Source: Dictyostelium discoideum
Lineage: Eukaryota
DNA length: 64,000 nucleotides
Assembly: GCA_000004695.1 (NCBI GenBank)
Contig: CM000150.2
Location: 3,200,001 to 3,264,000, forward strand
Direction of reading: 5' to 3'
In this document: positions 3,454 to 61,385 of the stretch, piece by piece
Position numbering within the stretch: position 1 is the first letter of the stretch
Layout of the letters: every line of letters begins with the position of its first letter
Program-made: the position numbers and the translations under genes
The notes under the pieces: generated by a model
The model's input: the letters and a program-made list of their open reading frames with translations, nothing else
Databases searched by the model: none
What the model was told of the DNA's origin: nothing

Positions 3454-3966
3454 TTAAATTGGTGCGAAATAAATAAATTAATAAATAAATAAATAAATAT
3501 TTAGATATAAACAAATAGATAAATTGAAAGAATATTATTTTGAAAAAAAAAAAAAATAAAAAAAAAAAAAAATATTTAAAATTAAAAAAAAAAAAAAAAA
3601 ATTAGAAAAAAAAAAATTAAAAAAAATTAATATAAATTAAATTTATATGCAACTGCCATTGGTGGTGTTATGTTATCAAGAAAAGTTGTTAAAAAAAAAA
3701 AAGAAATTTTTATTTGAAAAACTTGTTTGCAAATTATTTTTATTTTTTTAATTTTTTTAATTTTATTCCTTTTTTATTTTTTTTTATTTTTTTAAGATAT
3801 CAAACAAATATTTTCACATTTATTTAATATTTTTATTTTTATTTTTTTATTTTTTAAACAAATATTTACACTTAGTTTTTTATTTTTTAAGATATTAAAC
3901 AAATATTTTCACATTTATTTTTATTTTATTTTTATTTTTTTATTGTTATTATTTACAAATTATTAT

Positions 3967-4004
<38 letters not shown>

Positions 4005-4014
4005 AGGATAAATA

Positions 4015-4688
4015 TTATTTTTGAATTGTAGAAGTGGTTGTAGTGTTTATATCAGTTTGTTGTTGAACAGAGGGTGCTTGTAAGCCACCCTGTTGTTGCT
4101 GTTGTTGTTGTTGCAATTGTTGTAATTGTTGTGCTTCTGGAGAAGCTTGAAAGGCAGATCTTGCTTTTGCAAATAATAATTGTTGTTCTCTAATGAGTTG
4201 TTCTGTTGGTTTACCTAAATTTTCGAATTTTTTACTACTCTTTGATTTTGTACTAACTTCTAATTTGTGTTTATCATATACATCTGATACTTTTTGTGTA
4301 TAATCTGAAAATCCTAATTCCTATTGTAATTAAATTAATTTTTTTTTTTTTTGTGTTTATGTGTTTGTGTGTGTGTGTGTGTGTGTAAATATTAACAATA
4401 AACATTATTTTTTATTTTTTATTTTTTTATTTTTATTTTTTTTTAAGATTAACCTACGGTCAATGCTTTAATTACATGCTCAGCGGCAATAGTTCTTTTT
4501 TGTTCTCTACCACAAATATCATTTGCTTCACTAGATATTAAATGTATGAATTCTACACAACATTCTAATATGAGATCTCTTGTCTCGTTTGAACATTTTA
4601 CATCTTGTGGTAACATCTCTTTAATTAATTTTGATACTGTTGCCTTTGGTAATGACAAATTATCTTCCTTATCATTTTTATCACCCAT
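4015..4688 (-). CDS. Negative cofactor 2 beta / Dr1 (histone-fold TBP-binding repressor), join(4015..4320,4458..4688).
   Basis: Exon 1 encodes MGDKND...LPKATVSKLIKEMLP...FIHLISSEANDICGREQKRTIAAEHVIKALT. Exon 2 encodes ELGFSDY...KFENLGKPTEQLIREQQLLFAKAR...(Q-rich)...IQK*. The match to the Dr1 family is collinear (LPRAAINKMIKETLP / FIHLISSEANEIC / RLENLGIPEEELLRQQQELFAKAR). The intron is 4321..4457 with a GTAGGT donor and ...ACAATAG acceptor, and it contains a (GT)n run. Confidence 0.85.
4360..4385. repeat. (GT)n dinucleotide microsatellite inside the NC2beta intron.
   Basis: gtgtgtgtgtgtgtgtgtgtgt at 4360-4385. This GC-containing dinucleotide repeat stands out against about 80% AT background. 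Confidence 0.9.
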
Positions 4689-5173
4689 TATTTATTTTTA
4701 TTATTATTATCTTTTTAATACAAGCTGTTTTTTTTTATTCTTTATTCTTTATTCCTTTATTCTTTATGTAATATCTATTGAAAACAAAAAAAAAAAAAAG
4801 TTAATTACTAATGTATATAATATTTGTTTAACTAATGTTCACACAAAATCGTTCAAAAATTCATTTACAAAAAAAAAATAAAAAAAAATAAATAAAAAAA
4901 TTTTAAAATTTTTTTTTTTTTTTTTTTTATTTTTTTTATTTTTTTTTTTTAATTTCTTATTTTTTTTTATATCCACATAAGGCAAAAACTGGAAATAGTT
5001 TACCTCTACAATATGAAATCTACCAATATTAATTTCTTTGAATAACATTAAAATTAAATTATTTATTTAATCCATCAATAGGAAAAAAAAAAATTTTAAA
5101 TTTTTATTTGATACTCCCCTTTTTTTTTTTTTTTTATAAAGTGATAATCTAAAACCAATAAATAACCAAAAGT

Positions 5174-5206
<33 letters not shown>

Positions 5207-5381
5207 AACACTAAAAAAAAAAACAAAATACAAAAAATAAAAATAAGAAAAGGTATCCAATTTTAACCATAATTATGTTTAAATATTATTATTTATTTAT
5301 TTTTTTTTTTTATTTTTTTATTTTTTTTATTACTTGGGTTTTTTTTTTTTTTTATTTTTTTTTCTTAATTACTATAAAGAT

Positions 5382-5660
5382 TTAATAAGTTTTATGTGGG
5401 TGAATATTTTCAATAATACCATCGAAAGTTCTCTTTTTAACAATTTCTGGTGTAGTATCATAAGGACCTTCAACATTATCACGTCTCCATTTTTTAAAAT
5501 TAGCTGAAAGATCTGGTTTTGCAATGATTGAATTTGATATTTTTGAAACTCTTTCTCTAGCACCATCAACTAATTGAAATCTAACTTTACATGGTACACT
5601 AATAATAAATATTGAATAATGAATATTAGTATATGAAATTTTCACTTTAATCATTAACAA
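5382..5660 (-). CDS. Hypothetical protein, possibly the 3' exon of a small gene.
   Basis: 92-aa ORF whose C-terminal 65 aa (VRFQLVDGARERVSKISNSIIAKPDLSANFKKWRRDNVEGPYDTTPEIVKKRTFDGIIENIHPHKTY) have coding-like, relatively GC-rich codon usage. The N-terminal 27 aa look like intron read-through, and an acceptor-like ttattag precedes VRFQ. No domain recognised. Confidence 0.3.
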   Translation of the reverse strand: MLMIKVKISYTNIHYSIFIISVPCKVRFQLVDGARERVSKISNSIIAKPDLSANFKKWRRDNVEGPYDTTPEIVKKRTFDGIIENIHPHKTY

Positions 5661-5870
5661 TAATTGCTCTATTTCATATTTAAATCCTCAACCACAATAA
5701 TATTACAATAATAAATAAAATAGTAATAATCATAACAAAATAATTACTATTATTATTATTTTTATAATTATTATTGATAATAATAATGACTATTATTATT
5801 ATTATTGATAATAATGATTATTATTATTATTATTGAAGATTTCGAAACCATATTAAAAATGATATGATAT

Positions 5871-6294
5871 TTACTTGTATTTTGGATCTATATGTGAAAT
5901 ATTTGAATAATGAATTGGTGCTTCTTTTGTATATGCCATTGCTTTACTTCTTTTATTTGGTTTAGTTAATTTTTTTAATAATTTCAAACCTTCAACAATT
6001 AAATTACTATCTTTCTTATTAACTGATTTAATTATACCTTGTTTACCTTTATCTTTACCTGAAATGATTTGAACCTGTTATTTTTTGTTTTTTTATTTAT
6101 TTATTTTTTTTAAAAAAAAAAATATTAGAAAATGATTACTATAAAAAAAAAATAAATATTTCCTAATATTTGATGAAAATGCTGAAATTGGGAATTTTCT
6201 ATTATAAATTACACACTTTATCACCTTTAACATATTTCCATTTTGGAATTAAAAAAATTCCTTCTTTAAATGTTCTACCACCAAATAATGACAT
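5871..6294 (-). CDS. Mitochondrial-type ribosomal protein uL24 (KOW domain), join(5871..6074,6217..6294).
   Basis: The spliced product is MSLFGGRTFKEGIFLIPKWKYVKGDK|VQIISGKDKGKQGIIKSVNKKDSNLIVEGLKLLKK...KEAPIHYSNISHIDPKYK*. The KGDxVxVISGKDKGKQG...KEAxIhxSNV pattern is the uL24 KOW signature. Intron 6075..6216 has a GTGTGT donor and AACAG acceptor. Confidence 0.65.
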
Positions 6295-6738
6295 TTTTTT
6301 TTTTTTTTTCAAAAAACTTTATTTTTTCCTTTTATAAAAAAAAAAAAAAATAACAAAACAAAACAAAAAAAAACAAAATTAACTATATTTAATGAAATCA
6401 ATCAAAAAAAAAAAAAAAAAAAAAAAGTATTGATGCTGAATATGAAAAACTTGAAAAAAAAAAAAAAATAAATAAATAAAAAAAAAAAAATAAAAAAAAA
6501 AAAAAATAAATTTTTTTTTTTTTTTTTATAAAAAAGAAACGAGTCGGTTTCACTCACTGTTTTTTTTATTTTTTTTTTTTTTTTTTTTTTTTCATTACTA
6601 CCATTTTCCAAAATTAAGCAACAACAATACGTCAAATTAAACTATCGATTTTAGTTTACTATTTAAATAACAAAAAATAAATAAATAAACAATAAATAAA
6701 TAAATAAATAAAAAAATCATATATAAATTTGTCAAAAA

Positions 6739-7267
6739 ATGCAATCAGATGATATTATTTGGGATGTTATAAATAAGAATTTCTGTTCTTTTAAAACAAC
6801 GTATGTTTTTTTTTTTATTTTTATTAACATATTACTTAATATATTATTTTTTTTACAATATATCTAAATTTAACATAATATTAACTTTTTTTTTTTTTTT
6901 TTTTTTTTTTCAGATTTAATAAAACTAAATTTTGTAAAAATGAATATAATGTAACTGGTGTTTGTAATAAAGTATCATGTCCATTAGCAAATAGTAGATA
7001 TGCAACAGTACGTGAAGAAGAAGGTGTATGTTATTTATATATGAAAACAGTTGAAAGAGCTCATACTCCAAATAGACTTTGGGAAAAGATTAAATTGGAT
7101 CCAAATTTCATGAAAGCAATAGAACAAATCGATAGTCATTTAGAATTTTGGCCAGGTCATATGAGTCATAGAGTTAAACAAAGATATATTAGAATTACAC
7201 AATATTTAATTAGAATGAGAAAAATGAGAAAACAAATCAAGTATGTTTAATTTAATATTTTAAATTT

Positions 7268-7298
<31 letters not shown>

Positions 7299-7786
7299 CT
7301 AACATACACACTATTATTTATTATTATTATAGACGTGAATTAGTACCAATTAAAAAGAAAGCAGAAAGAAGAGATGCAACTCGTGAGAATAAAGCATTGA
7401 TTGCAGCTCATTTAACTACAAATATTAAGAAAGAATTATTAGAGAGATTGAATAAGGGTACTTATGCTGATATGCATTATTTCCCAGAAGATATTATTAA
7501 TAATGTTTTGGAGAAAGAAGGTGAAGCCGATCAATTCAGTGAAGAAGAAGCTGATGAAAATGAAGAAGAAGGTGAAGAAGAAATGGAAGAAGAATTTGAA
7601 GATGATATCGATGATATTGAAGATGCTGGTGGTGCTTTCGAATATGTCGAGGGTGATGATGATGAAGATGATATTGATGATGAATGTAAGTTTTTTTTTA
7701 TATTTTTTACTAATTATATAAATATAAAAAAAAAAAAAAAAAAAAAAAATCTTGGAAATTTTTTTTCTATTTTTGGATTTATTTCT

Positions 7787-19264: not shown

Positions 19265-19380
19265 ACAATGATATAAAAATTGTCACTTTAAATTTCTTTA
19301 AATAAAAAATTTTATTTTAATTATTAAAAACAATTATTTGAACTTCAAATTATTTGAATTTGAATTTTTTTTTTTTTGAA

Positions 19381-19480
19381 TTGGATAACGCAATTATTAG
19401 TTGCTTCTCCTTGAGATGCTAGATCTCATTTTATTTTTAGTTTTTTTTTTTTTTTACAGGGTCTCTAAAAGAGGGGTTAC

Positions 19481-19521
<41 letters not shown>

Positions 19522-19814
19522 TTTCGAATTTTGAATTGTATTATTACTTTTGATTAAAACATCTTTTTTGTCCAAACTTTTTTCTAAATCTTTTTTTATT
19601 TTATCGTCTGGTTGGTGATTGATGTTTATGACGTATTTGAATTGTTTTTTTTTTAATTGAGTTTTATCCACAATTTCGCTTATTTTTTGTAGGCATTTGT
19701 GTTGCTTAATATTTGTGGTGTTGTTTGTGATTTTCATCTTATTTTCTTTCTATTTTTTTTATTTTTCTTTAAAAAGTTAAAAATCTGGAAATTTTCTGAT
19801 TGACTTGGGTTCCC

Positions 19815-19881
<67 letters not shown>

Positions 19882-20371
19882 TTATTTATAGAAAGTACTG
19901 AGTGAATTATTGTATTTTTTGAGATGTTTAGGAAGTTCTATTGCGTGAAGAGGTGAGTTCCATTGTCTGCTAAATTGTAATAGCTTCAGCGAGATTAGTG
20001 AGTCTAATTTATTTTGTTCTTCTGGCCGTTGCTTTGATTTGATTCTTAATGTTTTGTCTATAACCGCTTGTGTCCTGTCCCATGCAGCTCTTTGTGTTTT
20101 AATTAGTTCACGTATGACTTGTTGTCTGTGAATTATTATTTCTTTTTCATCGTGAACGAGTTTGTTTCTTTTGTGCCAAATTTTTTCGAATATAATAGCT
20201 ATTAAATTGGCTACTAGTGCAATTTGTAGATGGTTTAAAATCTTCACATTCCAGGTGTGAGTGGTGTGTCCACACTTAGTTAGGGTGTAGTTGAAGATTT
20301 CTTGTGTGTTTTTGATGTGGGCTTTGCAGTTGAAGAATATATGTTCTGAAGTCTCATCTTCCCCACACTTT
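19381..20371 (-). mobile_element. 5'-truncated TRE5-A (tRNA-gene-targeted non-LTR retrotransposon) 3' fragment. Reading along the minus strand, it runs from the ORF2 C-terminal remnant, through poly(A), the B-module-like segment with the ORF1 start, and the C-module, to an oligo(A) tail.
   Basis: On the minus strand the ORF2 tail reads ...KCGEDETSEHIFFNCKAHIKNTQEIF...ANLIAIIFEKIWHKRNKLVHDEKE...STFYK*. A ~70-nt A-run follows, then a segment identical to the 5' UTR and first 86 codons of ORF1 (MKITNNTTNIKQHKCLQKISEIVDKTQLKKKQFKYVININH...). Then comes the C-module ...agaccctgtaaaaa...gatctagcatctcaaggagaagcaactaataattgcgttatccaattc and oligo(A). Confidence 0.75.
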
Positions 20372-20378
20372 CATGAAT
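19882..20378 (-). pseudogene. TRE5-A ORF2 C-terminal remnant (Cys/His zinc-knuckle region), 5'-truncated.
   Basis: The open frame KCGEDETSEHIFFNCKAHIK...IWHKRNKLVHDEKEIIIHRQQ...STFYK* has no start codon. It parallels the second ORF2 tail in this window, 57066..57666 (SCKEEESSMHIFFECKSIKQ...SIWYRRNQIKF). Confidence 0.75.
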
Positions 20379-20386
20379 TCGATTTT
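20372..20386. repeat. Target-site duplication (left copy) of the TRE5-A.2-like insertion.
   Basis: catgaattcgatttt is found at 20372-20386 and again at 22772-22786, exactly flanking the element. Confidence 0.7.
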
Positions 20387-20701
20387 TTTTTTTTTGAATA
20401 ACGCAATTATTATTTGCTTCTCCTTGAGATGCTAGATCTCATTTTATTTTTTTTTTTTTTTACAGGGTCTTTTTGATTAAAACATCTTTTTTGTCCAAAC
20501 TTTTTTCTAAATCTTTTTTTATTTTATCGTCTGGTTCGTGATTGATGTTTATGACGTATTTGAATTGTTTTTTTTTTAATTGAGTTTTATCCACAATTTC
20601 GCTTATTTTTTGTAGGCATTTGTGTTGCTTAATATTTGTGGTGTTGTTTGTGATTTTCATTTTATTTTCTTTCTATCTTTTTTATTTTTCTGATTAACTT
20701 G

Positions 20702-20760
<59 letters not shown>

Positions 20761-22465
20761 TTATAGAAAGTACTGAGTGAATTATTGTATTTTTTGAGAT
20801 GTTTAGGAAGTTCTATTACGGGTGTTGATGATGATTTGTGACACCCCTTGTCCTGTTTTATCAATTGGTGCGTGGTGTGTTATTTTGTTTTTATATTGTT
20901 GATTTATTGAGTAAATTTTATTTGTTTTTATATTTGTTTCAGTTAGAAGTGCTGCGTCCAGCTTGTTGTTGTCTAAAACGGTGTTTATTATGCTGGCAGA
21001 TTGGATGGTGTTGGATCCTTGGACGTTCCAAACACCTATTCTTATTGTGTTTTTCTTTATAGTTTTATTTGGGGTAGATTTTTATCTACCTTTTGAAGTT
21101 TCTGGTTTATTTTGTCTTCTAACTGATCTTTACTTTGTTCGTTGTGTTGTTGGTCTTGTGTGTTTGTGGGGTTTTTTGATTTATTGATTTGTTTTAGAAT
21201 TTCCTTGTTGAAGTTGTCTATATCTTCATCCATTTTTGTTTTTATGCTTTTTTGTCCATATTCACCCAATTTTGGTTTGACTGGTGTTTTGTTGGTCTTG
21301 TTTGTTTTGTCTTGTTGTTTCTTTTTTGGTGTGTTTAACAATTTACTTGGTGAATCGATAATTTTCGATGGTGTACCATAGGTTGGGCTGAAACTCATGA
21401 TATGTTTTATTGGAGAGGAGAAGAACCATTGATTTGAAGGGATTGAAAGTGGGAATTCTATTTTTCTTATTGCATCAGTGTTTGGGCTGGTGAAGTCGAA
21501 GATATCATTTGCCTCTCTAAGTTTTTCTTCCGTTGTTAGTCCCTTTGTTTCGCCGTGTTGTTTTATTGGTGTATTGTATGGAGATGGTGGTTCGATAGGT
21601 TTTTCTGATTTTGTTTTAATTTCTTGATTGTTTATCGATTGTGTATTGATCTCATTCTCTATTCTTGTTAGTTCATCTACGTTTTCTAGTGATGCTTCTA
21701 TTACCTTTTGAGCTGTATCATCTAGGGCCATAAATGTTTTATCATTAGATGAGGATGTGATTGGTGGGATAATGATTGTTCTTTTTCCTTGTTTGGTATT
21801 TGTTCTGATGTAGAGTGTGGTTGTTGTTCATCTGATTGTTTTTTATTTTTGTTTTCTTCTTGATTTTCTGGTAATGAGGTTTGATCTCTCCATCCTTTGT
21901 TGGAGTGTCCAATTAATGTTAGATTGTCTAGTTCAATGATAGTGTCAAATTCTTCTACGACTCTTTTCACTGTTTTGATAATTAGAGTTTCGCCTTTAAT
22001 TTCTGATTTAATTAGTTTACATCCTTCATTTTCTATTACCCATTCTATTTCTGTGAGTGATTTATACCAATCAAAATCTGTATACATATTTTTTGGTCTT
22101 ATAGTGGTTATAAATTGTCCTTTTAATTCTGCATCAAACATATTTACAAAATAGATTACTGTACTAATACTGTCTGTGAGAATTTTGAATGTATTATTAC
22201 TTTTGATTAAAACATCTTTTTTGTCCAAACTTTTTTCTAAATCTTTTTTTATTTTATCGTCTGGTTCGTGATTGATGTTTATGACGTATTTGAATTGTTT
22301 TTTTTTTAATTGAGTTTTATCCACAATTTCGCTTATTTTTTGTAGGCATTTGTGTTGCTTAATATTTGTGGTGTTGTTTGTGATTTTCATTTTATTTTCT
22401 TTCTATCTTTTTTATTTTTCTTTAAAAAGTTAAAAATCTGGAAATTTTCTAATTAACTTGGTTCC

Positions 22466-22510
<45 letters not shown>

Positions 22511-22771
22511 TCTTTTTTATATGAAAAATGAAATAATCAAAAAAAGAGATTGTTGTTGTTGTTTGTTTTTTTCGATCTGATTATTTTTTGCTTTTTTTTT
22601 GAAAATTTTGCTACGCAAAATTCTCAAAACGAAACAAATAATAAATTACAATAAAGTAAAAAGATGGCTTTTTAAAATAGTTTATTTATTTATTTATTTG
22701 TTTTTTAAGTCTTTTTTATATGAAAAATGAAATAATCAAAAAAAGAGATTGTTGTTGTTGTTTGTTTTTTT
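20387..22771 (-). mobile_element. TRE5-A.2-like element, about 2.4 kb on the minus strand. The order is duplicated A-module, B-module with the ORF1 start, ORF1, a short 5' stub of ORF2 joined by internal deletion to the last ~60 bp of ORF2, poly(A), B-like segment with ORF1 N-terminus, C-module, and oligo(A).
   Basis: The 5' end at 22771 is 47 bp from the 5' end of tRNA-Thr at 22818. This matches the known TRE5-A integration preference of about 48 bp upstream of tRNA genes, with the element 5' end proximal. The copy is flanked by 15-bp direct repeats. Its internal structure matches the described 2.6-kb ORF2-deleted TRE5-A.2 class. The oligo(A) tail is 20387..20395. Confidence 0.8.
21057..22390 (-). 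CDS. TRE5-A ORF1 (about 445 aa), present as two overlapping frames 21722..22390 and 21057..21731. A frameshift near 21725 disrupts it.
   Basis: The N-terminal frame reads MKITNNTTNIKQHKCLQKISEIVDK...HLMIKHLWP*. The C-terminal frame reads MALDDTAQKVIEASLENVDELTRIENE...LPQIKL*. Their sum matches the ~51-kDa ORF1 of TRE5-A. The same N-terminal 66-86 codons recur at 20460..20660 and 19477..19737. Confidence 0.7.
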
Positions 22772-22817: not shown

Positions 22818-22889
22818 TGGCTCCTTAGCATAGTGGTATTGCGCTTCCCTAGTAAGGAAGAGGTCATGAGTTCGATCCTCATAGGAGCC
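22818..22889 (+). tRNA. tRNA-Thr (anticodon AGT/AGU).
   Basis: GGCTCCTTAGCATAGTGGTATTGCGCTTCCCTAGTAAGGAAGAGGTCATGAGTTCGATCCTCATAGGAGCC+T. The acceptor stem has 7 bp (GGCTCCT/AGGAGCC). The A box is TAGCATAGTGG. The anticodon stem CTTCC/GGAAG has loop CTAGTAA. The T arm is ATGAG-TTCGATC-CTCAT. No intron. Confidence 0.9.
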
Positions 22890-22923
22890 TTTTATATAAA
22901 TATAAATCTGAACCATATATCGC

Positions 22924-56780: not shown

Positions 56781-56805
56781 CGCCTTGCAAAAAAAAAAAA
56801 AAATT
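56781..56805 (-). terminator. Pol III terminator, a T16 run on the tRNA strand immediately 3' of tRNA-Ile.
   Basis: The minus strand reads aattttttttttttttttgcaaggcg starting at the tRNA discriminator base. Confidence 0.8.
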
Positions 56806-56879
56806 GCTCGATGCAGGGATCGAACCTGCGACCGTGGCGTTATTAGCACCACGCTCTGCCGACTGAGCTAATCGAGCCA
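56806..56879 (-). tRNA. tRNA-Ile (anticodon AAT/AAU).
   Basis: The reverse complement is GGCTCGATTAGCTCAGTCGGCAGAGCGTGGTGCTAATAACGCCACGGTCGCAGGTTCGATCCCTGCATCGAGCA. The acceptor is GGCTCGA/TCGAGC(C). The A box is TAGCTCAGTCGG. The anticodon loop CTAATAA gives AAT, which decodes AUU Ile. The B box is GGTTCGATCCC. Confidence 0.9.
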
Positions 56880-57009
56880 TTTTGATATTTTAGAAATAAA
56901 GTTACTCTATAAAATTAATAAATAAAAAGAAAGGAGCAGAAGAGACTATGAAATTGGAGGCCTGCAACTCTGGAATATGGCAACCAGATCCAATGCCCAG
57001 AAAGCATGG

Positions 57010-57075
57010 ATATACGAACAATACCTCAGAGAAAAAGACGACCAGAACTGCCCTCCACATATGAAAGCCTGGAAG
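57010..57075. repeat. Left arm of a ~60-bp inverted repeat that brackets the TRE5 ORF2 remnant. Its partner is at 57688..57744.
   Basis: atatacgaacaatacctcagagaaaaagacgaccagaactgccctccacatatgaaagcctggaag is the reverse complement of cttccagacttccatatgtggagggcagttctggtcgtctttttctctgaggtatat. Identity is about 92%, with a 7-nt indel. Confidence 0.8.
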
Positions 57076-57687
57076 TTGTTGCACCACCCAAGAGAGCGAA
57101 TTACTCTCAAACTAAACCAAGTCAAACCCAAATACAAAAACAAACAAAAATTAAAAGTAATCTATAGAAACATGATGGATATCAAATACAAGGGATGGAA
57201 CAAACACCAGCCAACAACAGGTCAAAAACTGATTCAAAAGAACATTAATCACCCAACTCTACCATTTAGAGAAGCCAGATCAATAACAACTATCAAAGGA
57301 AGAGACTTAGCATGGAGGTATCTACTCAAGGCACTTCCAAAACACCATGTGGAGAATTGCCACTCATGTAAAGAAGAAGAGTCGTCTATGCACATCTTCT
57401 TCGAATGCAAATCAATAAAACAGGATATCGACTCAATCTATCAAAAGGTCTGTAAAGACTCTAACAACACTTACCACGGTCCATGGAGCGAAAAAGTTCT
57501 CGGAAAACTACTCACACCATTCTCATCAAATCTGATAGGAGCCATTATGGAATCGATATGGTACAGAAGAAACCAAATAAAATTCAACGATAACACTACA
57601 ATAATAACAGAGAACCAAATAATTCATAAAATCAAAGGCTTTCCAGCATTTGATGTGAATCCTTGATAGTGAGTTTTCTTTTTCCGA

Positions 57688-57744
57688 CTTCCAGACTTCC
57701 ATATGTGGAGGGCAGTTCTGGTCGTCTTTTTCTCTGAGGTATAT
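57688..57744. repeat. Right arm of the inverted repeat, lying in the 3' UTR of the TRE5 fragment.
   Basis: See the partner at 57010..57075. Confidence 0.8.
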
Positions 57745-57757
57745 AACACCAACTACT

Positions 57758-57800
<43 letters not shown>

Positions 57801-58199
57801 ATAACAATAATAATAATAATATAATAATAATAATAATATAATAATAATAATAATAAAAAAATAAGAATAAAATAAAAAAAAAAAAAATATAAAAAAAAAA
57901 AAAAACTACAAATAAACTCTCCTAGAACACACTCAAATTGAGTGATGTTATTAAAAAAAAAAAATTAATAGATATTAAATATGCATATTACATTACTAAT
58001 TATAGTTGACACACATTTAAATAATATAATAATAATAATAATAATAATACTGTCAGCTCATTATGAATAATATAAATACTAAAGAATAATTTTATAAACA
58101 ATATTGAATATTATAAATATAAATTAATATTAAATAAAGATAACAAGGTATTATTCAATTATATAATTATTAATTATATATATTTATAAAGCTAACAAG

Positions 58200-58400
58200 C
58201 TTTATTACATTTTGGTCAGTTTTTGCTTAAAAATTTCCGCGACAGCATTTCCAATTAAAAAAAAAACTTCTGTGTATTCTAAAAAACTAACCCTTTCAGA
58301 GGCCCTGTAAATACATTACAAATAAAAGAGATATAGCGTCTCAAGGAGAAGCAACTAACAATTGCGCTATTCAATTAAAAAAAAAAAAAAAAAAAAAAAA
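58200..58400 (+). mobile_element. TRE5-type C-module-like 3' terminus with an oligo(A) tail and a short B-module-like segment before it. It is a solo 3' fragment, or the distal end of the 56930 element.
   Basis: ...aaaaatttccgcgacagcatttccaatt...gaggccctgtaaatacattacaaataaaagagatatagcgtctcaaggagaagcaactaacaattgcgctattcaatt plus an A25 run. This is about 85% identical to the TRE5-A C-module copies in reverse complement at 19395-19470 and 20396-20459 (agaccctgtaaaaa...gagatctagcatctcaaggagaagcaa(c/a)taataattgcgttat). Confidence 0.55.
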
Positions 58401-58904
58401 GTCCTTATATTGAATTTTTATATTTAAATGATTCATAAAAAGCTCCATAAATTTTTAAAACCTTTGTTTTTTTTTTTTTGTTAACTGCAATCTTTTTAAA
58501 AGTTGTTATTAAAAAAAGATTAACACTTTATATTCATAGAATTCGATTCGTTATTGTTTTTTTAATATTAAATAAAAATGATTAATTTAATATAAAAAAA
58601 AATTTATAGCAAAAAAAAAAAAAAAAAAAAAAAAAAGAAACTACTACGAAAGTTGTTTTCATTCTTTTATTTAAATAATAATTGAGCTGAACTTAATTTC
58701 TTTATACTAAAATTTATAAAATAATTTGCTTTGTTGATATTTTGATAAAATTATTCCTAAAAAATTCTATTCTTTTAAAATTCGAAGAACATTACCTCAA
58801 TAAATAAGAAATCGCTACAAGAATCTTGAAAATATAAGAAAATTTAATCTCGATCGTTTTTTTAAAAAAGAAAAAAAAAACCAACTTATCAAAAAAAAAA
58901 ATAA

Positions 58905-59030
58905 AAAAACTGGTATGAATCGAGAAAATGAAAAAAAAAAAAAACTGGTGTGGATTGAGAAAATGAAAAAAAAAAAACTGGTATGAATCGAGAAAATGAA
59001 AAAAAATAAAAAAAAATAAAAAATAAAAAA
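58905..59030. repeat. Minisatellite of about 37-bp units in 3 copies.
   Basis: The units are aaactggtatgaatcgagaaaatgaaaaaaaaaaaa, aactggtgtggattgagaaaatgaaaaaaaaaaa and aactggtatgaatcgagaaaatgaaaaaaaat. Confidence 0.85.
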
Positions 59031-59660: not shown

Positions 59661-61385
59661 ATGTTTAGTTCAATTATGTTTAAAAAAAAACCCAAACAAA
59701 ACTTAAATGAAAATGAAATAACATCACAATCAACCACAACAACATCAACTTTATCAGATTCAAAACCAAGTGAAAAGAAAATAAAAGATAATAAAAATGA
59801 TAAATTTAAAATTAATGAAAATGATACAATAGTTGAAATTGAGTGGGAATCTGATATTCAACAAAAATATGATTTAATAGCATTATATGATAATGATACA
59901 AATGTAATTGATGATTATATATGGCATTGGAAAATAAATGATGAATATACCTATAATAATAATAATACAAATATAATTAGAGATCCAAATAAAAATTATT
60001 ATATAAAATATTGGAGAATTGATGACAATAATAATGGAATTAATCATCATCATCATTATAATCATCATCATCATATAAATAATCATCATCATAATCATAT
60101 TAAAACGAATCATCATAGTCTTCCACCTAATCTTCATTTATCACCACTTCATAATAATAATCATCATCGTCATCATAGTCACCAATTTCCAAAAGTATCA
60201 ATTAATAATGTTTATAAACAAATTCATAATTATAAATTAAAAAATCATTTTATAAGGCAACAATTTCAAAATAATTCAACAACAAATCAAGATACAATTA
60301 AAATTAAATTATCGCATTTTGAAGAAAGAAATCTATTAAAATCAGTAGATTATTCAGGAGAGATGTTTAAACAATACTCAAATTGGATGACAAATAATTG
60401 GGAAAGAATTAAAGATAAAATGGTTAGAGACCTAGTTTTACCAGGTAGTCATGATGCTGCAACCTATGGAATTAAATCAAGTTCGTTAAGAGTACCAGGT
60501 GATAAAGTACCATCATTTATACCAAATTCAATTGTATCAAAATGGTCAAAAACTCAAAGTGGAAATATATTTAAACAATTAACAATGGGTTACCGTTATT
60601 TTGATCTTAGAGTTGCACCATATCCAGTCACTGGTAAATTATATATTTATCATGCAATGTTTTCAGTTCCAGTTTCCGAAGTTTTAGATGATATAGTTAA
60701 ATTTATAAAAAATACAAATTATTATCAACAACCAAATAGTAGTAATAATAATGATGAAAAACAACAATTACAACAACAACAACAATTATTTAAAAAAGAA
60801 ATAATTTTATTACATTGGAATCATTTAGGATATTTATCAATTGAACAACATCAAGAATTACAATTAATGATTAAATCCAAATTAGATGGTATGTTGGCAA
60901 ATAGACAATTAGGTAACAATGTAAAAGTTAGAGAATTAGAATTTACACCAATTATAAATATTTATGATGATAATGGTTTAAAGAAACGTATTATAAATGA
61001 TGATGGTAAAAAAAGTAAACAACCATTTGATTCAATTCAAAATGAACCATTATTTTGGTACTCCAATAAATCGTTGGTATCAAATTATGATTCAAATCAA
61101 TTTCATACAAGTAAAGATGTAATATCATTTCTATCAAGAGAAGTTACCTATAATCATAAAGATAGATTTTGGGTAGCTCAATGTATCTTAACAATTGATT
61201 CAAAAAAATTATTACATATCACTACAAATTCATTATTGGACTGGAATCATTCTGAATTTCCAAAATTTTTAAAGTTTTTTGAAAATTTGGAAGAAAAAAA
61301 AGTTCCAACAAATATTATAATGACTGATTTTTGTACTCATTATCCAATAACTGATTACGCAATTAGAAGAAATATAAATGAATAA
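59661..61385 (+). CDS. PI-PLC X-domain-containing (PLC-like phosphodiesterase, PLCXD-type) protein with a His/Asn-rich N-terminal insert.
   Basis: 574-aa ORF containing ...MVRDLVLPGSHDAATYGIKS...WSKTQSGNIFKQLTMGYRYFDLRVAPYP.TGKLYIYHAMF.... The catalytic His sits in the L(P)GSHD.. motif, and the RYFDLR motif of the PI-PLC X-box TIM-barrel is present. HHHHYNHHHHINNHHHNH lies upstream. There is no Y-box and no C2 domain. Confidence 0.75.
   Translation: MFSSIMFKKKPKQNLNENEITSQSTTTTSTLSDSKPSEKKIKDNKNDKFKINENDTIVEIEWESDIQQKYDLIALYDNDTNVIDDYIWHWKINDEYTYNNNNTNIIRDPNKNYYIKYWRIDDNNNGINHHHHYNHHHHINNHHHNHIKTNHHSLPPNLHLSPLHNNNHHRHHSHQFPKVSINNVYKQIHNYKLKNHFIRQQFQNNSTTNQDTIKIKLSHFEERNLLKSVDYSGEMFKQYSNWMTNNWERIKDKMVRDLVLPGSHDAATYGIKSSSLRVPGDKVPSFIPNSIVSKWSKTQSGNIFKQLTMGYRYFDLRVAPYPVTGKLYIYHAMFSVPVSEVLDDIVKFIKNTNYYQQPNSSNNNDEKQQLQQQQQLFKKEIILLHWNHLGYLSIEQHQELQLMIKSKLDGMLANRQLGNNVKVRELEFTPIINIYDDNGLKKRIINDDGKKSKQPFDSIQNEPLFWYSNKSLVSNYDSNQFHTSKDVISFLSREVTYNHKDRFWVAQCILTIDSKKLLHITTNSLLDWNHSEFPKFLKFFENLEEKKVPTNIIMTDFCTHYPITDYAIRRNINE

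Follow-up and report, generated by a model that had tools for sequence, protein, structure and literature searches.

The window, by which we mean the whole 64-kb stretch of DNA analyzed here, comes from chromosome 1 of Dictyostelium discoideum AX4 (4.92-Mb contig) and has a G+C content of ~20%. At the locus under study, a tRNA-Ile(AAU) gene and a 5′-truncated retrotransposon of the TRE5 family stand head to head (Table 1). The first base of the element lies 47 bp upstream of the tRNA gene, with 46 nt (positions 56878 to 56923) between the two. Four relatives of the element at other tRNA genes (L002, L003, L005, and L006) keep the same distance and are likewise placed head to head. Such a distance, set at the target, is the textbook expectation for target-primed reverse transcription. 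The initial annotation of this locus had recognized a 5′-truncated TRE5-family ORF2 remnant ~50 bp upstream of tRNA-Ile and had argued that its position is set at the target. Both statements are correct, but the second is not new: TRE5 elements as a rule integrate ~50 bp upstream of tRNA genes (PMC5006619), the 5′-truncated window element follows this rule, and the rule has already been documented for 5′-truncated TRE5-A (PMC3159450).

The element is flanked by a target-site duplication of 9 to 13 bp (aaattaata[a/g]at). In the left copy, the core ttaataaat is certain, whereas the A's before it are ambiguous. This duplication had previously been sought around 56925 and 57800; the check places it just outside the first of these positions and well beyond the second (Table 1). 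A match as good arose in 211 of 2,000 shuffles and is therefore only moderately unlikely by chance. The duplication is confirmed by a paralogous long terminal repeat (LTR) in L008, which is uninterrupted at the insertion point and contains the motif once (...ctctataaaaataatagatattaaac...). Removal of the element together with one duplication copy restores a sequence of ~280 bp that is 85% identical to this L008 stretch, which adjoins a Ty3/gypsy-type pol gene and has the ends TGTAAT...ATTACA. The match to L008 and the single motif copy there indicate that the element landed in an LTR remnant. This host LTR begins 13 nt upstream of tRNA-Ile, within the distance from tRNA genes at which DGLT-A is found (13 to 16 bp; PMC5006619). 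An orthologous empty site was sought at the tRNA-Ile loci of L007, L009, L010, and L011, and none was found: these loci have diverged or carry a TRE5-A derivative instead, and they are without the host LTR, so that the empty-site proof rests on the paralogous LTR in L008. The related genomes L007, L010, and L011 have neither the insertion nor the host LTR at their orthologous loci.

To place the element within its family, we compared it with relatives retrieved through homologues of the window open reading frame (L001, L002, and L003) and with two added later (L005 and L006). The element is collinear with L006 (5422 to 6634), L001 (6729 to 7553), and L002 (5955 to 6823). L001, from D. discoideum, is 97.5% identical to positions 57234 to 57636, and L002, from D. 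cf. discoideum, is 86% identical to positions 57126 to 57636; L003 is more distant, and L006 is a near full-length relative (78% identical). The remnant is homologous to TRE ORF2 (APE-RT-zinc finger), with 73% amino acid identity over 237 residues to the C-terminal part of L006 ORF2. The L006 gene product contains a Pfam RVT_1 domain; the window retains only the zinc-finger end of ORF2. The zinc knuckle noted in the initial annotation is real, and the Pfam zf-RVT match to the remnant is weak (E = 0.062).

The 3′ part of the element sets both its extent and its subfamily. In L001, L002, L003, L005, and L006, ORF2 ends in ...caccaactactcat; beyond it come a poly(A), an A/TAA-rich tract, a unique terminal sequence of ~47 nt (ctacaaataaactctcctagaacacactcaaattgagtgatgttatt), and an oligo(A). 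Because the same order is present at positions 57743 to 57964 of the window, the poly(A) at 57762 to 57798, previously taken for the end of the element at 57800, is internal to the family 3′ untranslated region (UTR), and the element ends with the oligo(A), at 57964. The terminal 47 nt are common to L001, L002, L005, and L006 and are unrelated to the C-module that is seen at positions 58284 to 58401 of the window and in L001. RNAalifold gave only a weak consensus for these 3′ ends, with the most divergent sequence misaligned, and single-sequence folds were used for the small terminal hairpin. TRE5-A and TRE5-C, but not TRE5-B, have 3′ ends that are defined by the C-module (PMC3159450). Since the 3′ end lacks a C-module, we assign the element to TRE5-B, by exclusion of TRE5-A and TRE5-C.

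Within this element, a repeat search detected an inverted repeat (57021 to 57076 and 57687 to 57742) whose arms are complementary at 54 of 56 nt and lie 610 nt apart. Within the 64-kb window, a 22-mer taken from the arm is found at these two sites and nowhere else (0 expected). The open reading frame across this region is 100% identical to DDB_G0269662 of D. discoideum AX4. L004, an independent D. discoideum assembly (GCA_054883475.1) and the only other assembly with the insertion, matches the window at 99.7% identity over 6.5 kb. Across the element, the two assemblies agree at every base apart from the length of the internal poly(A), and the arrangement is the same; the repeat is therefore real and not an assembly artifact. 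The inverted repeat of the initial annotation is thus present, with an arm identity (96%) far above the 80% below which the reading was to be abandoned. It does not, however, bracket the element as had been proposed: the left arm lies 97 bp inside, and the right arm ends ~220 bp before the true 3′ end.

Comparison with the relatives distinguishes the two arms. Homology to L001 and L002 ends at 57636 and resumes at ~57741. In place of the intervening stretch, every relative keeps ~203 bp of ORF2 coding sequence (...KARDAEWDRTRKIIEKQLRQELR...; L001 7134 to 7336; P0003, P0005, and P0056), and positions 57637 to 57742, including the right arm, are therefore a replacement rather than the 3′ UTR sequence they had been taken for. 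Positions 57636 to 57742 match L006 5627 to 5521 in reverse, as one block of 107 contiguous nt, whereas the direct copy matches L006 5422 to 5574 and then 5620 to 6190. Read on the reverse strand, positions 57637 to 57741 encode a peptide that is 83% identical to L006 ORF2 residues 296 to 330 over all 35 residues. This peptide includes 19 residues that are absent from the direct copy, which reads ...YLREKDDQNCPPHM followed immediately by KAWKLLHHP... and shows a 19-residue gap against L006 ORF2. An exhaustive phmmer search returned P0005, a 708-residue ORF2 fragment that reads ...YLREKEDENCPPHMEVWKSEKETALSRIHLKCWKSWKLLHSP... across the gap, and the 19 codons are conserved in P0005, P0006, P0007, and P0026. 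This search also explained the 50-bp "filler" at 57637 to 57686, for which blastn-short had found no source elsewhere in the window or the other loci, as the missing ORF2 segment (M in Table 1). Positions 56924 to 57636, by comparison, follow intact ORF2 collinearly, in the sense orientation and in frame.

These alignments show the left arm to be native ORF2, in sense orientation and at its usual place and frame, and the right arm to be the inverted copy. The initial annotation had this direction reversed, taking the tRNA-proximal arm for an inverted copy of sequence near the 3′ end. Three candidate readings were rejected. The right arm as family 3′ UTR fails because L001, L002, and L006 hold ORF2 coding sequence there. 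The left part (56924 to 57125) as foreign or inverted sequence fails on its collinearity with L006 ORF2 and its partial coverage by the L003 and L005 copies. The replaced ~203-bp segment (D) was also considered as a natural partner of the copied segment, through degenerate similarity or RNA complementarity; alignment scores and duplex energies were no better than those of shuffled sequences, and the block is therefore not a mutated native stem.

Together, these comparisons allow the element to be described as a rearranged series of ancestral segments: A, S1 (43 bp), M (57 bp), K (6 bp), R (567 bp), D (~203 bp), and the 3′ end (Table 1). The ancestral order was A-S1-M-K-R-D-3′ end, and the present order is A-S1-[M lost]-K-R-[inverted K-M-S1]-3′ end. 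A 106-bp ORF2 segment was reverse-copied into the place of the 203-bp D, and the 57-bp M is gone from where it originally stood. Both S1 and K are duplicated exactly in inverted orientation. The 60-bp arms of the initial annotation correspond to a real 56-nt match, but only 43 nt of it are exact inverted duplication; the other 13 nt match through near-repeats, and the true inverted copy is 106 nt long. The arms appear as 56 nt because the lost M was flanked by 13-nt near-repeats, repeat 1 at its start and repeat 2 just after it (11/13 identical). With M gone, repeat 2 comes to lie next to S1, where it pairs with the repeat 1 complement carried by the inverted block.

Table 1. Features of the tRNA-Ile locus and segment map of the rearranged element (window coordinates)
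Feature	Position	Strand	Basis or remark
tRNA-Ile(AAU) gene, target positioning the insertion	56805..56877	-	ARAGORN; orthologous tRNA-Ile genes in L004, L007, L009, L010, L011
Left target-site duplication copy, aaattaataaat	56912..56923	+	Flank comparison; uninterrupted L008 LTR
Whole 5′-truncated element (putative TRE5-B), ORF2 codon KERSRRDY... to terminal oligo(A)	56924..57964	+	Collinear with relatives; target-site duplication bounds
Segment A	56924-57020	+	
Segment S1, native ORF2, exact 43-nt left arm	57021..57063	+	Reverse complement of 57700-57742; collinear with L006 5521-5563
Junction J3, M (57 bp, 19 codons, EVWKSEKENSLSRIHIKCW) missing from direct copy	57063..57064	+	BLASTP 19-residue gap against L006 ORF2; DNA alignment
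Segment K (aaagcc)	57064-57069	+	First 6 nt of repeat 2; last nucleotides duplicated in inverted block
Repeat 2, aaagcctggaagt	57064..57076	+	11/13 match to repeat 1, gaagtctggaagt, which remains in the inverted copy only
Segment R	57070-57636	+	
ORF2 zinc knuckle, CHSCKEEESSMHIFFEC	57358..57408	+	Comparison with L006 ORF2; weak Pfam zf-RVT match
Junction J1, family homology stops and inverted block starts, 1-nt microhomology	57636..57637	+	blastn with L001, L002; inverted L006 homology 57636-57742
Inverted copy of contiguous ORF2 segment, 106 bp	57637..57742	-	Minus-strand reading YLREKDDQNCPPHMEVWKSEKENSLSRIHIKCWKA; in place of ~203 bp of ORF2 C terminus
K′	57637-57642	-	
M′	57643-57699	-	
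S1′	57700-57742	-	
Junction J2, inverted block joins last ~19 nt of ORF2, 2-nt microhomology (at)	57742..57743	+	
3′ end segment	57743-57964	+	
Normal 3′ part (putative TRE5-B)	57743..57952	+	Three-way alignment with L001 and L002; blastn; hairpin folds
Last ORF2 stretch	57743-57761	+	
Internal poly(A)	57762-57798	+	
A/TAA-rich tract	57799-57905	+	
Unique terminal 47 nt	57906-57952	+	Small hairpin at 57926-57949
Terminal oligo(A), true element end	57953-57964	+	
Right target-site duplication copy, aaattaatagat	57962..57973	+	Flank comparison

We consider this arrangement to be a private, nonfunctional rearrangement in a 5′-truncated TRE5-B copy, which was probably made by a minus-strand polymerase switching templates serially, at integration or later. 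[quoted passage not shown] At J2, over 2 nt of microhomology, it would have jumped ~0.9 kb ahead onto a strand of opposite polarity and copied S1-M-K in the sense direction (106 nt). At J1, over 1 nt of microhomology, it would have returned to its original template at the end of R, skipping D. After copying R and repeat 2, it would have realigned on the similar repeat 1 and so skipped M (J3).

The marks by which serial template switching is recognized, namely, clustered breakpoints, a nearby templated insertion, and short microhomology, are all found here. The three junctions fall within 680 bp and use 1 nt (J1), 2 nt (J2), and a 13-nt imperfect repeat (J3), and the 106-nt insertion was templated 0.6 kb away on the opposite strand. 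The deletion junction J3 retains the repeat 2 variant (aaagcc...), which fits a right-to-left strand that copied repeat 2 and realigned on repeat 1; as read from the sequence, both mismatches between the repeats would be G:T or U:G wobbles in such synthesis. Moreover, the donor breakpoint of J1 and the deletion breakpoint of J3 lie 6 bp apart, which favors one event or a shared hotspot. Template-switch products with microhomology joints have been described among long-read-resolved L1 insertions (PMC11702581). Microhomologies of 1 to 2 nt are weak evidence in themselves. No intermediate was found at this single locus, which makes the order and number of events a proposal.

Serial switching may date from the insertion itself, through the reverse transcriptase or repair synthesis in target-primed reverse transcription. 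Alternatively, it may have come later, through template switching of the FoSTeS/MMBIR type in replication or break repair. The integration-time version would need antisense TRE5-B RNA or a second cDNA as a template; ordinary target-primed reverse transcription has no antisense template on which S1-M-K could be copied. The later version would involve a cellular polymerase in a fork-stalling or break-induced event, with the opposite strand naturally available. It calls for a rare complex replication error in a 1-kb stretch. A narrower form of the integration-time version strikes us as conceivable but rather doubtful: while target-primed reverse transcription was under way, the reverse transcriptase of TRE5-B would have left the sense RNA for an antisense TRE5-B transcript, copied that transcript to its 5′ end, and jumped back. 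The antisense template could have come, for example, from read-through from the antisense promoter in the C-module of a neighboring TRE5-A or from an RdRP. If this were true, the locus would be a fossil of antisense RNA entering the TRE5 integration complex as a usable template. De novo TRE5 insertions with direct-inverted-direct structures, if such were found, would point to integration-time switching onto antisense nucleic acid.

The same structure could also have arisen through two separate events in the DNA after integration, although we judge this course unlikely. A double-strand break in D would have been repaired by fold-back priming: the resected plus-strand 3′ end at the end of R would anneal just past K, copy K-M-S1 backwards, and join the distal break end. 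Later, slippage during replication from one 13-nt repeat to the other, perhaps promoted by the 106-bp inverted repeat, would have removed M from the direct arm. This course yields the exact plus-strand order R-K′-M′-S1′-3′ end, the loss of D, and joints of 1 to 2 nt. It explains why M is present in the inverted copy, which would have been made before M was lost, and every template it needs is locally present. However, it places two rare events in one dead element of 1 kb. The fold-back loop of 567 nt would be far longer than typical snap-back repair tracts, and the proximity of the J1 donor to J3 becomes coincidental unless the inverted repeat drove the slippage.

A further explanation, that the arrangement was inherited from a source (master) TRE5-B or is a structural feature of a subfamily, is improbable given the other copies of the family. 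Nonautonomous deletion derivatives such as TRE5-A.2 have spread in this group (PMC3159450), and few D. discoideum TRE5-B copies entered the comparison. However, the arrangement is absent from all five relatives (L001, L002, L003, L005, and L006), whose homologous parts contain no inverted repeats of at least 25 nt. Every distant ORF2 relative spanning the region has residues equivalent to M. In other D. discoideum TRE5-B fragments (P0056; L001), ...IIHKIK leads into the normal continuation, ...IIHKIKKARVAEWDRTRK, and the AX4 or AX4-like fragments P0040 (DDB_G0271028), P0054, P0055, and P0056 have normal sequence where they overlap. No second protein with the aberrant tail GFPAFDVNP was found in 5.8 billion clusters. 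Word-indexed protein searches detected no intact D. discoideum TRE5-B covering S1-M-K, and the intact relative used here is the 78%-identical L006. As far as the available copies show, a handful of TRE5-B elements, the arrangement appears to be private to this locus, as the initial annotation had asked.

Twin priming, in which a nick in the top strand primes a second cDNA internally on the RNA and so inverts the 5′ end, had been named as the mechanism signified by the inversion, and we now find it very improbable. It would account for the presence of an inverted segment and for short microhomologies at the junctions. In twin-primed insertions, however, the inverted segment is the 5′ end and abuts the 5′ target-site duplication (PMC11702581). 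Here, the sequence from the 97 bp beside the 5′ duplication up to 57636 reads in the sense direction, keeps the frame, and aligns collinearly with intact ORF2, and the inverted block is internal, near the 3′ end, with sense sequence on both sides. Nor are the direct and inverted parts adjacent on the template: the end of the source segment lies 567 nt upstream of the insertion junction, and 49 nt of the inverted block are also present in direct orientation. The sense orientation of the tRNA-proximal end (56924 to 57636) thus excludes the twin-priming half of the earlier proposal, whereas its other half, template jumping, is viable in a broad sense.

Equally hard to credit is a selected hairpin RNA locus, in which both arms would be transcribed into a 43- to 56-bp double-stranded stem supplying RNA interference directed against TRE5-B. 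The locus does have an annotated gene model (DDB_G0269662), and the stem dominates the predicted fold of positions 56990 to 57770 (-210 kcal/mol; z = -11.8), but such folding is expected of any inverted duplication, the 5′-truncated element has no promoter of its own, and nothing is conserved, the arrangement being absent from all other family copies and the insertion from the orthologous tRNA-Ile loci of L007, L010, and L011. We therefore treat the predicted 43+13-bp long-range stem as a by-product with no evident function.

The element belongs to a known retrotransposon family and lies at an already annotated locus (DDB_G0269662), and the scramble is a mutational scar in one dead copy. It carries little weight for biology at large and is of low general interest. 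Its value is that of a cleanly resolved example: the 57 bp lost by the direct copy survive in the inverted one, so that an exact reading of the ancestral state and of all three junctions is possible. A natural misreading is corrected as well, since one poly(A) of TRE5-B is internal, ~200 bp ahead of the real 3′ end, and the first poly(A) reached does not mark where the element stops.

Compared with known systems, the window copy resembles TRE5-B in its placement ~48 bp upstream of a tRNA gene, head to head and with a target-site duplication, in the zinc knuckle at the ORF2 C terminus, and in a 3′ end without a C-module. It differs from TRE5-B in its 5′ truncation, which leaves ~237 of roughly 1,000 or more ORF2 codons, and in its private internal inverted duplication and two deletions, which are absent from five other copies. 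Internal ORF2 deletions are shared with TRE5-A.2 and with other internally deleted TRE5 copies such as L005, but those are simple direct deletions, whereas the window copy also contains a templated segment in inverted orientation. In L005, a point within S1 is fused directly to one ~50 bp ahead of the ORF2 stop, and the deletion ends fall close to both ends of the window rearrangement. These two cases hint, but merely hint, that the S1 and pre-stop regions may be prone to polymerase jumps. Like 5′-inverted L1 insertions made by twin priming, the window element is a non-LTR insertion with a segment of its own reversed and with short microhomology joints. In twin-primed L1, however, it is the 5′ end itself that is inverted, and on the RNA the inverted part borders the direct part, with only 1 to 10 bp of overlap or loss (PMC11702581); the window block is internal and 3′-proximal, duplicates sequence ~0.6 kb away, and has sense flanks on both sides. 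The likeness to template-switch L1 insertions and FoSTeS/MMBIR events extends to several breakpoints within 1 kb, a nearby inverted templated insertion, a deletion, and microhomologies of 1 to 2 nt, with the difference that one junction in the window uses a 13-nt imperfect repeat rather than microhomology.

The TRE5-B copy upstream of tRNA-Ile interrupts an LTR remnant that begins 13 nt upstream of the tRNA gene, a DGLT-A-type position. An uninterrupted paralogue of this LTR (L008) has the ends TGTAAT...ATTACA, followed by a PBS-like tttggcgac; at the window locus nothing is left of the element but the LTR and roughly 5 nt of internal region. Farther out lies a C-module, the 3'-end module of TRE5-A and TRE5-C, whose orthologues are more complete TRE5-A derivatives, found ahead of the same tRNA-Ile at three other loci (L007, 6190-6775; L010; L011, 4845-5788). 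The locus has therefore received at least three successive insertions, in the order TRE5-A, DGLT-A-like element, TRE5-B. Separately, a tandem repeat lies upstream of a PI-PLC X-domain gene (59661-61385), in a region conserved in part in L007-L011.

Coordinates of repeat features in the window and at related loci
Feature	Location	Strand	Remarks
LTR remnant, ~280 bp	window 56891-56923 + 57974-58214		split by TRE5-B
C-module + oligo(A)	window 58284-58401		remnant of older TRE5-A
Three tandem ~36-bp units	window 58905-59005		ctggtatgaatcgagaaaatgaaaaaaaaaa...
Stack of TRE5-A copies and fragments	window 19300-22770	minus	upstream of tRNA-Thr (22819-22890)
TRE5-B-like copy	L005 5957-6506		D. cf. discoideum; simple internal deletion
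~750-bp insertion	L006 1626-2378		59-nt terminal inverted repeats (CACAGCAATGAAAA...)
TRE5-B 3'-end hairpin	window 57926-57949; L006 6596-6619; L003 6737-6761		predicted fold

TRE5 elements are also stacked at other tRNA genes. The stack upstream of tRNA-Thr contains tandem A-modules, a frameshift-split ORF1, ORF2 3' ends, and B- and C-modules, and a near-identical stack lies upstream of tRNA-Lys at another D. discoideum locus (L001, 3700-6290). There, the one tRNA-Lys has a stack of three TRE5 types upstream (3663-7560): TRE5-A, a TRE5-C-like fragment that ends in a C-module, and TRE5-B. All three are flanked by the identical duplication gatcgttatat, which shows that one target site was used repeatedly. 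The gene model behind P0002, the protein annotated at this locus, is a chimera that fuses the start of TRE5-A ORF1 to the end of TRE5-B ORF2.

Of two related TRE5-B-like copies, one carries a deletion and the other an insertion. The deletion in L005 joins ...gagaaaaagac, inside the native ORF2 segment S1 (window-equivalent 57040), to a point some 50 bp short of the ORF2 stop, and both breakpoints lie near those of the window TRE5-B rearrangement. The L006 element is near full-length apart from an ORF1 interrupted by the ~750-bp insertion, possibly a small DNA transposon.

A 10-bp hairpin with a single bulge is predicted for the unique 3' end of TRE5-B. At one position in the stem, AX4 has U-A, L006 has C-G, and two other related copies (L002 and L005) have a C/A mismatch; L003 forms a hairpin in the same place, with U-A at the position of the neighboring C-G of AX4. 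By suggested analogy with the stems of the TRE5-A C-module, this hairpin may serve as a recognition structure for the RT.
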